Sequence record: PV173775
DNA: 64,000 nt
Source of the DNA: Escherichia phage GEP001
Direction: 5' to 3' (one strand)
Shown: positions 51,523 through 56,434 of the stretch, piece after piece
How the letters are laid out: each line of letters opens with the position of its first letter
Position numbering within the stretch: position 1 is the stretch's first letter
Position numbers and translations under genes: made by a program
Notes under the pieces: generated by a model
Database searches by the model: none
The model's input: the letters and a program-made list of their open reading frames with translations, nothing else
What the model was told of the DNA's origin: nothing

Positions 51523-52701
51523 ATGTTTAAACGTAAATCTACTGCTGAACTCGCTGCACAAATGGCTAAACTGGCTGGAAATAAAGGTGGTTTTTCTTCT
51601 GAAGATAAAGGCGAGTGGAAACTGAAACTCGACAATGCGGGTAACGGTCAAGCAGTAATTCGTTTTCTTCCGTCTAAAAATGATGAACAAGCACCATTCG
51701 CAATTCTTGTAAATCACGGTTTCAAGAAAAATGGTAAATGGTATATTGAAAACTGTTCATCTACCCACGGTGATTACGATTCTTGTCCAGTATGTCAGTA
51801 CATCAGTAAAAATGATTTGTATAACACTGACAATAAAGAGTACGGTCTTGTTAAACGCAAAACTTCTTACTGGGCTAACATTCTTGTAGTAAAAGACCCA
51901 GCTGCTCCAGAAAATGAAGGTAAAGTATTTAAATACCGTTTCGGTAAGAAAATCTGGGATAAAATCAATGCAATGATTGCAGTTGATGTTGAAATGGGTG
52001 AAACTCCGGTTGATGTAACTTGTCCGTGGGAAGGTGCTAACTTTGTACTGAAAGTTAAACAAGTTTCTGGTTTTAGTAACTACGACGAATCTAAATTCCT
52101 GAATCAATCTGCGATTCCAAACATTGATGATGAATCTTTCCAGAAAGAACTGTTCGAACAAATGGTTGACCTTTCTGAAATGACTTCTAAAGATAAATTC
52201 AAATCGTTTGAAGAACTGAGCACTAAGTTCAGTCAAGTTATGGGAACTGCTGCTATGGGTGGTGCCGCAGCAACTGCCGCTAAGAAAGCTGATAAAGTTG
52301 CTGATGATTTGGATGCATTCAATGTTGATGACTTCAAAACAAAAACTGAAGATGATTTTATGAGCTCAAGTTCTGGCAGTTCATCTAGTGCTGATGACAC
52401 GGACCCCAAAGCATACTGTGGTACTATACAACTATCGGCAATACTGCTGATGATGATTAAAGAGGAAAATAACATGGCTAAAATTGATATTGATGTTGTT
52501 GATTTTGAATATATTGAAGAAATTATTCGTAATCGTTATCCTGAACTCCGTATCATAAGCGCACTAAATGATCCTAATTGCAATGTTTCAGTTGTTATTG
52601 AAGGTCCTTTAAATCGTCTTAAACAATTTATGATTAATGAATATTGTGACGGTATGGATGCTAAAGATGTAGAATTTTACACAGGATTTATTGAGCAGTA
52701 A
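51523..52701 (+). CDS. 32: gp32 ssDNA-binding protein, as encoded a 392-codon read-through ORF
   Basis: First 294 aa recognised as gp32 (zinc site, ...[14 protein letters not shown]); no stop follows and the frame continues into the 75-codon ORF beginning MAKIDIDVV. Confidence 0.85.
52474..52701 (+). CDS. 75-codon ORF with its own RBS (AAGAGGA), in frame with gene 32
   Basis: [75 protein letters not shown]. Confidence 0.5.
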
Positions 52702-53418: not shown

Positions 53419-53754
53419 ATGTCTGACATTCACGTAACTGGAATTGCCCAAGTAAATATCCGCTGCCAATTTAAAACTGTACCTGGGGTGACTCATATTA
53501 CTTTATCACACGACCCATATTCTCGTGGAAGACAGTTAACTGGCGTAATTAAGTTTTTTGGTGGAATTGGCGGAAACGAATTTACTATAGGCGATGACGA
53601 AATTGTTGGCTGTAAATTAAAAGTTCAGAAGGGCGTGTTAGAACTTTTTAGTGATGAAGTTTTTGATGAAATTTCACAAGCAGTTAATAAAGGAATGTTA
53701 ACGTTAATTAAAATGATTAAAGCTAGTGGATATGTTCCCGATCCTTTATATTAG
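53419..53754 (+). CDS. hypothetical protein (111 aa)
   Basis: Track ORF. Confidence 0.5.
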   Translation: MSDIHVTGIAQVNIRCQFKTVPGVTHITLSHDPYSRGRQLTGVIKFFGGIGGNEFTIGDDEIVGCKLKVQKGVLELFSDEVFDEISQAVNKGMLTLIKMIKASGYVPDPLY

Positions 53755-53762
53755 GAGATAAT

Positions 53763-54005
53763 ATGATTTTTGTTTTTGAATTTATGAATGATGAATTTGA
53801 TTATGCAATTTTTAACGCATTGCATAATCCTGATTTAAATGAATTTAATGAAATGTTTTCTGACGCTTTGAGTATGTCAGAAGAATACTGTGGAGAATGT
53901 CAACGTGTTTGCGTGACAGTCTTTGAAAACAAAGAAAAGACATATGAAGAATTATTCTTTGATGCTAATAAAGCCACTGAATGGTTTATTGAAAGGGGGT
54001 TTTGA
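53763..54005 (+). CDS. hypothetical protein (80 aa)
   Basis: Track ORF. Confidence 0.5.
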   Translation: MIFVFEFMNDEFDYAIFNALHNPDLNEFNEMFSDALSMSEEYCGECQRVCVTVFENKEKTYEELFFDANKATEWFIERGF

Positions 54006-54593
<588 letters not shown>

Positions 54594-54613
54594 AATAACA
54601 CGTGGCGGAAAAT

Positions 54614-54961
54614 ATGAATTTTAATTACTACCCTATTCTATTAGAAAAAGACGCGAAACAACCAAAATGGCAGGGTCCTCAGTTTATTAAAGGTGTCTAT
54701 CAATTAGTAGTTCCTAAAGACAAAATTTATAGCAGTTGTTTCACTGAATCCGCTTGTAGTATTTTTGGTAATAATTCTCCGTATTGGAATTTTGATATAA
54801 AGCTTGACAGAAATATCGATATTTGGTTGAAAGCTATGGATATCGGCAATATCACGTTTGATGAGAATAATTATCATATTATTGGTCGCTTTTCCAAGCG
54901 TGGTAAAGAATTGTATTTTACGCCTGAAATTGAAAGAAAATTTGATGCTAAACCGTATTGA
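54614..54961 (+). CDS. hypothetical protein (115 aa from ATG; 119 from GTG at 54602) between frd and td
   Basis: Track ORF; sequence not recognised. Confidence 0.5.
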   Translation: MNFNYYPILLEKDAKQPKWQGPQFIKGVYQLVVPKDKIYSSCFTESACSIFGNNSPYWNFDIKLDRNIDIWLKAMDIGNITFDENNYHIIGRFSKRGKELYFTPEIERKFDAKPY

Positions 54962-55006
54962 TTATTTAGCTTCATAAAATGTATTATAATTTATATAAGG
55001 TACTAA

Positions 55007-55867
55007 ATGAAACAATACCAAGATTTAATTAAAGACATTTTTGAAAATGGCTATGAAACCGATGACCGAACAGGCACAGGAACAATTGCTTTGTTCGGTA
55101 CTAAATCACGCTGGGATTTAACTAAAGGTTTTCCTGCAGTAACGACTAAGAAACTCGCTTGGAAAGCTTGCATCGCTGAGCTAATATGGTTTTTATCAGG
55201 AAGCACAAATGTCAATGATTTGCGTTTAATTCAGCATGATTCATTAATTCAAGGCAAAACAGTCTGGGATGAAAATTACGAAAATCAAGCAAAAGATTTA
55301 GGATATCATAGTGGTGAACTTGGTCCAATTTATGGAAAACAGTGGCGTGATTTTGGCGGTGTAGACCAAATTGTAGAAGTTGTTGATCGTATTAAAAAAC
55401 TGCCAAATGATAGACGTCAAATTGTTTCAGCATGGAATCCAGCTGAACTTAAATATATGGCATTACCGCCTTGTCATATGTTCTATCAGTTTAATGTGCG
55501 TAATGGCTATTTGGATTTGCAGTGGTATCAAAGAAGTGTTGACGTGTTCTTGGGCTTGCCATTCAACATTGCATCATATGCTGCATTAGTTCATATTGTA
55601 GCTAAGATGTGTAATCTTATTCCAGGAGATTTGATATTTTCTGGTGGTAATACTCATATCTATATGAATCACGTGGAACAATGTAAAGAAATTTTACGTC
55701 GTGAACCTAAAGAGCTTTGTGAACTGGTAATAGGCGGATTGCCTTATAAATTCCGCTATCTTTCTACTAAAGAACAATTGGAATACATTCTTAAACTCAG
55801 GCCTAAAGATTTCGTTCTTAAAGGTTACGAATCACACCCTCCTATTAAAGGAAAAATGGCGGTGTAA
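55007..55867 (+). CDS. td: thymidylate synthase Td (uninterrupted)
   Basis: 286 aa continuous ORF with TS active-site region (PPCH); no intron. Confidence 0.95.
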   Translation: MKQYQDLIKDIFENGYETDDRTGTGTIALFGTKSRWDLTKGFPAVTTKKLAWKACIAELIWFLSGSTNVNDLRLIQHDSLIQGKTVWDENYENQAKDLGYHSGELGPIYGKQWRDFGGVDQIVEVVDRIKKLPNDRRQIVSAWNPAELKYMALPPCHMFYQFNVRNGYLDLQWYQRSVDVFLGLPFNIASYAALVHIVAKMCNLIPGDLIFSGGNTHIYMNHVEQCKEILRREPKELCELVIGGLPYKFRYLSTKEQLEYILKLRPKDFVLKGYESHPPIKGKMAV

Positions 55868-55890
55868 TTAATTATTAATTGTGAGGATAT

Positions 55891-56154
55891 ATGATTTTAC
55901 GATTTAAAGATACTTCTGGTGTAGTTCTTTTTACACTTCCTAACCCAAGCGAATTAGAAGTTCCAGGACCAAATCAGCCTATTATCATTTACGGCAAAAA
56001 ATATTATACTCATAAAATGACTCGTGAGTATTTTGATAATAAAATTTCTACAGTTAAAACTTCTTCAGATTGTTACTATGATATTACTGTTTTAACGGAA
56101 AAACAATATGACGAATTATTACCGCGCGGGCCGTCTATGCCAAGTAGTGAATAA
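55891..56154 (+). CDS. hypothetical protein (87 aa)
   Basis: Track ORF. Confidence 0.5.
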
Positions 56155-56434
56155 ATATAAATCCGACTTTGATGTTAATATTCACCGTGGTACATTTTGG
56201 GGAAATTACGTCGGTAAAGATGCTGGCAGCCGGGAGGCTGCCATTGAATTATTCAAAAAAGATTTTATACGTCGAATTAAATCCGGAGAAATAACTAAAG
56301 CACATTTAGAGCCTTTACGTGGAATGAGGCTAGGATGCACATGTAAACCAAAGCCGTGTCATGGTGATATAATAGCTCATATAGTTAACCGATTGTTTAA
56401 AGACGATTTTCAAGTTGAGGACTTATGCAATTAA
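56108..56434 (+). CDS. hypothetical protein (108 aa) with C-x-C-x5-C-H cluster
   Basis: [12 protein letters not shown] motif; overlaps neighbours out of frame. Confidence 0.5.

Follow-up and report, generated by a model that had tools for sequence, protein, structure and literature searches.

A phrog_1928 gene between frd and td in Escherichia phage GEP001 and most of its relatives, missing from phage T4

In phage T4, the genes for dihydrofolate reductase (frd) and thymidylate synthase (td) are joined through an ATGA overlap of stop and start codons, an arrangement known since the 1980s from the T4 sequence. Rearrangements of T4 DNA include, as a classical class, deletions between short direct repeats. 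In the T4 record NC_000866 (minus strand), the overlap amounts to 4 nt, with the end of frd at 145109 and the start of td at 145112, and td itself is joined from two pieces and contains I-TevI. In the review by Petrov (2010), frd and td appear only among the auxiliary metabolism genes, and literature searches on the gene considered here, its family and the frd-td junction returned no paper. Hundreds of GenBank genomes nonetheless already list the gene as coding for a hypothetical protein, and it is clustered in PHROGs.

Here, we analyzed a stretch of 64,000 nucleotides from Escherichia phage GEP001 (record PV173775; hereafter, the window), part of a T4-like genome of the genus Tequatrovirus in which frd and td stand apart. 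A first-pass annotation had noticed an extra ORF between them, had taken the two genes to be directly adjacent in T4, and had suggested a possible lineage-specific insertion. The ORF listing of the window bears out the extra ORF, which we call gene A, and NC_000866 agrees with the adjacency in T4. The same annotation had called the sequence unrecognized, which holds in so far as no Pfam or NCBIfam family matched, though phrog_1928, a family of unknown function, does.

Gene A and its surroundings in the window

The frd gene (54009..54593, + strand; 194 aa; Pfam DHFR_1, E 1.7e-18) encodes a protein with the same C-terminus as T4 Frd, ...TESVYK*, and its TGA stop lies within an ATGA, as it does in T4. 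Downstream, td (55007..55867, +; 286 aa) is uninterrupted, lacks both the group I intron and I-TevI, and covers the whole Pfam Thymidylat_synt profile (E 2e-95). The gap between the two genes measures 413 nt and holds gene A (54614..54961, +), which encodes 115 aa followed by a stop and is assigned to phrog_1928, with selection, conservation and an AlphaFold2 model as further evidence. An alternative GTG start at 54602 would give a protein of 119 aa (ORF 54602..54961, +); judging from the sequences compared, translation more likely begins at the ATG at 54614, because this is the codon annotated in most records, including T2, and because phage PTK has CTG at the position of the GTG.

Gene A is flanked by a direct repeat whose copies lie 417 bp apart, share 13 of 15 positions and are perfectly matched over their first 9 nt. 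The left copy, TAAATGAAATAACAC (54587..54601, +), includes the frd stop together with ATG AAA TAA, a relic mini-ORF reminiscent of the td start, while the right copy, TAAATGAAACAATAC (55004..55018, +), covers the td start codon. Between gene A and td runs a 45-nt spacer (54962..55006, +), and a 32-nt segment of it, at about 54965-54996, is absent from phage PTK. The segment reads AGCTTCA-N10-TATAAT and could be a candidate middle or early promoter for td, since it resembles a MotA-box middle promoter or a sigma-70 promoter. A consensus scan also picked out TTGATT-18-TATTAT at 54958..54987, and in the promoter and terminator scan of the region, sites were no more frequent than expected by chance. 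Rfam covariance models applied to 53700-56200 returned one chance-level match only (Yar_1, 22 bits against a gathering score of 50).

Gene A is a genuine gene under strong purifying selection. A stop-free run of 120 codons in a gap of 413 nt is rarely reached by shuffled sequence (11 of 20,000 shuffles), and the frame is intact in 554 phage records. Compared with T2, the gene shows a single amino-acid change at a dS of 0.38, giving a dN/dS of 0.009; across further comparisons the ratio ranges from 0.03 to 0.15, being about 0.05 against both PTK and JQD51 and 0.08-0.15 against metagenomic homologues at 63-66% identity. Within Tequatrovirus, dS reaches 0.4-1.0, and the GC3 of gene A, 27.6%, matches that of the neighboring genes. 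Antisense ORFs in the same stretch (54704..54877 and others) were rejected as by-products, because selection acts on the + frame.

These data bear directly on the idea that the ORF is spurious, or the remnant of a decayed mobile endonuclease gene. Gene A is indeed unannotated in some GenBank records (phage 132 and the T2 record AY310907), and in T4 this region sits between the known homing-endonuclease loci segG, I-TevI and mobE. However, the low dN/dS throughout, the conserved frame and a confidently predicted fold all speak for a working protein, and gene A has no GIY-YIG, HNH or other Pfam match; searches for a nuclease domain or motif in Pfam (E up to 1) and NCBIfam (E up to 10) found none. 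We regard the idea as already refuted by selection and conservation, and what probability it retains as negligible.

GenBank records with annotation errors at the frd-td locus comprise MZ417521, PV204681, OK274152, OK272476 and AY310907. In the record of phage 132, gene A is omitted and two small overlapping ORFs are called instead, with the frame intact there. In JQD51 the product names are displaced by one gene, such that gene A is labeled dihydrofolate reductase, a label it also carries in APTC-EC-2A and JLBYU24, and the T2 record of 2003 (AY310907) leaves the whole 413-nt gap unannotated.

Two observations concern the region upstream. A second ORF that is extra relative to T4 (53763-54005, +; 80 aa) occupies the gap between frd.1 and frd; it belongs to phrog_3183, of unknown function, and is annotated as 'RB32ORF231c' in T2, at a place where T4 has a 71-nt gap. 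Further upstream, at 52405-52420 within the ORF 51523..52701, about 13 nt stand in place of about 118 nt of T2, a change that removes the terminator hairpin of gene 32 along with its final 8 codons (LDDLLNDL*), and also the -35 element of the frd.3 promoter. Consequently, gp32 runs in frame into Frd.3 to give a 392-aa fusion ORF, and the same contiguous gp32-Frd.3 junction was found, among the best matches, in phiC600P9 (two records) and vB_Eco-B1.1 only.

Distribution of the family and alleles of the junction

A tblastn search with the gene A protein retrieved 554 phage records, each with a single copy. At least 90% amino-acid identity was found in 362 of them, including T2, RB27, RB3, PP01 and wV7, while the other 192, at less than 60%, are phages of Klebsiella, Citrobacter, Enterobacter, Kosakonia, Edwardsiella and Salmonella. 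Residues 8-115 of gene A align with positions 2-125 of the 126 in the phrog_1928 profile (E 7.1e-36), which is also matched by the distant homologues of gene A and by those of a second ORF, B, described below. An exhaustive search of 1.84 billion representatives recovered only 22 clusters, nearly all of 95-116 aa (a word-indexed homology search had found 3), and a search of BFVD returned uncharacterized proteins of T4-like phages only.

Wherever a locus from other Tevenvirinae or from Marfavirus was examined, homologues at 26-66% identity occupy the frd-td slot; a distant homologue follows frd directly and precedes td in Kosakonia phage 305 and PEi26 (Kanagawavirus), Klebsiella phage RCIP0032, Marfavirus P545 and Moonvirus CF1, with stop and start codons overlapping in most of these distant loci. 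The same-strand placement between frd and td was seen in the window, in seven GenBank loci, in two Logan contigs that carry the closest homologues from outside Tequatrovirus (one of them, L012, ends before td), and in all 14 of the IMG/VR loci recovered with the family profile. The data show that phrog_1928 is an old family confined to T4-like phages and found only in the frd-td gap.

Seen against this distribution, the first-pass observation holds, and its suggestion of a lineage-specific insertion does not. The ORF is extra relative to T4 and missing from it, yet it is present in most relatives, in 362 records at high identity and across many genera, and the synteny comparison that places homologues in the same slot throughout those genera disposes of the term "lineage-specific".

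To count the alleles, we used a 120-nt probe across the T4 junction, which matched 514 records. Both halves of the probe were found in 381, of which 362 carry gene A, and about 20 records have the direct T4-type junction (T4 isolates, HY03, vB_EcoM_F1, JEP6 and ECO07P1). The frd half alone was found in about 133 records, and those that were opened (ACG-C40 and Shinka) have another ORF, C, between frd and td, overlapping both; C occurs at 95% identity or more in 134 records. Tequatrovirus therefore comprises three alleles, with gene A only in about 70%, C only in about 26% and neither, as in T4, in about 5%. Gene A is the majority state of the genus, and T4 belongs to the minority without it. 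A link between gene A and the td intron or I-TevI was considered and dropped, since A-type phages occur both with and without the intron, which is also present in C-type and direct-junction phages.

In many genera, gene A is directly followed by B, an ORF of about 115 aa whose similarity to A is weak by BLAST and, by hhalign, extends over the full length with a probability of 99.15% (E 4e-19). Every B locus examined has B immediately downstream of a copy of A, and Tequatrovirus has no B. The B-type members of phrog_1928, such as Citrobacter phage CF1 gp199 and Kosakonia phage 305 QYN80407, share with A the same gap and the QxKW and GRFxKxGxxxxF motifs, and differ from it by about 19 extra residues inserted after the QKKW motif.

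The third ORF, C (68-69 aa, pI about 10.2, phrog_9550), is present in Marfavirus P545, in the contig L013 and in two IMG/VR phages, and its copies in these phages are about 80% identical to those of Tequatrovirus, their Frd being about 45% identical to that of the window. C-type ORFs were located in L008 (2557-2763), in L009 and in L013 (3670-3879), and the full A-B-C cassette is extant in Marfavirus P545, L013, L020 and L021. In genera other than Tequatrovirus, overlaps of stop and start codons usually couple translation of the cassette to that of frd and td; in Tequatrovirus, unlike those genera, gene A overlaps neither frd nor td. The A allele keeps one member of the cassette and the C allele another, and the simplest account of the two is therefore differential loss from an A-(B)-C ancestor. 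Homologues of C at about 43% identity also occur in the unrelated phAPEC8-like phages (Phapecoctavirus), and the label 'DUF4858' carried by the C-type ORF in MZ502379 was set aside, a Pfam scan having given no such match.

Origin of the T4 junction

When one copy of the direct repeat and the sequence between the copies, 417 bp in all, are removed from the window, the T4 frd/td junction results. The T4 adjacency is most simply read, from this comparison, as a 417-bp deletion between the short direct repeats that flank gene A. The 5' sequence of T4 td is closer to that of A-type than of C-type phages.

The converse account would have gene A enter a T4-like ATGA junction recently and in one lineage, by illegitimate recombination, with duplication of some 15 nt from the start of td. 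It is equally possible to read the repeat as such a target duplication, the left copy having the look of a decayed td start, and the missing overlap between gene A and its neighbors, peculiar to Tequatrovirus, would fit a newcomer. Moreover, gene A is 63% identical to its metagenomic homologue in L013, where Frd is only 46% identical, the frd-A region is mosaic in PTK, and direct frd-td junctions also exist in Mosigvirus AV115 and Klebsiella phage Squirrel_ER27. A recent arrival is, however, hard to reconcile with a gene carried by about 70% of Tequatrovirus records, T2 among them, and with homologues at 26-45% identity in the same slot across many genera. Differential loss from an A-B-C cassette accounts best for the C allele found at this site, GC3 is equal to that of the neighbors, and the dS of 0.4-1.0 within Tequatrovirus indicates long residence. 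We therefore consider a recent insertion unlikely, and on either account, deletion or insertion, gene A is not specific to the lineage of this phage. Given the direct adjacency in Mosigvirus and in Squirrel_ER27, the deep ancestral state may have been either with or without gene A. For the identity and the evolutionary history of gene A as described here, our confidence is high.

PTK (L014, 740-860), which is classed as Mosigvirus, combines a Tequatrovirus-like frd (about 97%) with a gene A at 92%, an instance of local mosaicism. Its frd stop region carries two extra A residues, such that Frd is 205 aa long and overlaps gene A.

Predicted protein and comparison with known systems

An AlphaFold2 model of the gene A protein, built on an alignment with 23 homologues, reached a pLDDT of 89.6 and a pTM of 0.82, and replaced a four-sequence model with a pLDDT of 61. 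It places strands at residues 10-16, 31-38, 84-86, 90-100 and 103-108, short strands at 42-44, 52-54 and 66-68, and a helix at 72-81. A small beta-barrel is predicted, and the order of its elements, beta1-beta2-beta3-helix-beta4-beta5, fits an OB fold; comparison of the model with solved structures, OB-fold domains included, gave no significant match, and a sequence-profile search of the PDB gave chance matches only (E 0.04 or worse). The invariant positions are Q20, W23, G31, G95, K99 and G101, and L13, Y33, N83, F97 and F106 are nearly so. If their placement by secondary structure is correct, several of these conserved residues would map to what is usually the ligand face of an OB fold, made up of beta2, the beta1-beta2 loop and the beta4-beta5 hairpin. 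Among the conserved positions of the family alignment, none is acidic or a His, Cys or Ser, which makes catalysis unlikely. The A and B members range in pI from 6.6 to 9.6.

OB-fold proteins dominate the weak structural matches to the model. They include the subunits RPA14/RPA32, RMI1/RMI2 and Stn1-Ten1 and the ssDNA/RNA binders SSB, CspA and S1, which resemble A in size, at about 110 aa, and in the strand order predicted for it. By analogy with the paired subunits, the tandem A and B paralogues could associate with each other, and A may work as a dimer, either with itself or, in phages that have both paralogues, with B. On this reading, A would be a non-enzymatic binding protein whose ligand may be single-stranded nucleic acid or a protein partner, made early together with dihydrofolate reductase and thymidylate synthase, useful in nature and dispensable in the laboratory, since T4 has no gene A. 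This binding role is offered tentatively, as possible but doubtful.

Somewhat less credence still goes to a role in host takeover or counter-defense, in which A would bind and neutralize a factor of the host, with an arms race, and not nucleotide metabolism, behind its presence/absence polymorphism. A is a small early accessory protein lacking catalytic residues, dispensable in T4 and from a family duplicated into two paralogues, and it varies by presence, absence and replacement among close relatives, all of which such a role would accommodate. Its very strong purifying selection and limited diversification within Tequatrovirus are, by contrast, unlike many arms-race proteins, and its position beside frd and td is fixed in all genera. 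A PADLOC HMM scan of gene A matched 0 families at E up to 10, a weak test, given that PADLOC covers defense rather than anti-defense. That same fixed position, exclusively between frd and td, with stop/start overlaps in most genera that favor co-translation, would suit an accessory subunit or regulator of thymidylate synthesis that binds Td, Frd or the dNTP-synthesizing complex. However, the same pathway operates in T4, Mosigvirus and others that lack A, phages with and without it show no obvious compensating difference in Frd or Td, and gene order is conserved among T4-like phages in general, so we judge a role of this kind unlikely. What ties A to the T4 dNTP-synthesizing complex (Td, Frd, gp42 and NrdAB) is gene adjacency and translational coupling only. 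Unlikely as well is the prospect that phrog_1928 constitutes an undescribed OB-like family of paired A and B proteins, specific to T4-like phages and partnering thymidylate-synthesis enzymes or ssDNA at the interface of replication and dNTP synthesis; if true, decades of work would have overlooked such a component because it was deleted from T4, the model phage. Taken as a whole, the explanation that we consider best, and lean towards somewhat beyond an even balance, is that of an old phrog_1928 accessory gene, lost from T4 by deletion, that encodes a non-enzymatic binding protein.

As a finding, gene A is nothing out of the ordinary, T4 and its relatives being already known to differ in gene content in this way. 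The significance is modest and lies in the reference phage being atypical at a textbook junction. Further interest attaches to phrog_1928 itself, a family under tight constraint that has duplicated, keeps to a single locus and apparently has no relative among solved structures, and that makes a reasonable candidate for functional study; nothing points to a new kind of system. Compared with its closest known counterparts, namely T2 AYD82824.1 ('RB32ORF229c') and the orthologues of RB27, RB3, PP01 and wV7, which are 98-99% identical, 115 aa long and in the same frd-td position, gene A differs in nothing material: it is the same gene, for which no function is recorded. The T4 overlap, in turn, shares with the window the ATGA at the frd stop and the same first td codons, and differs in that, in the window, 417 bp with gene A part the two copies of the junction sequence.
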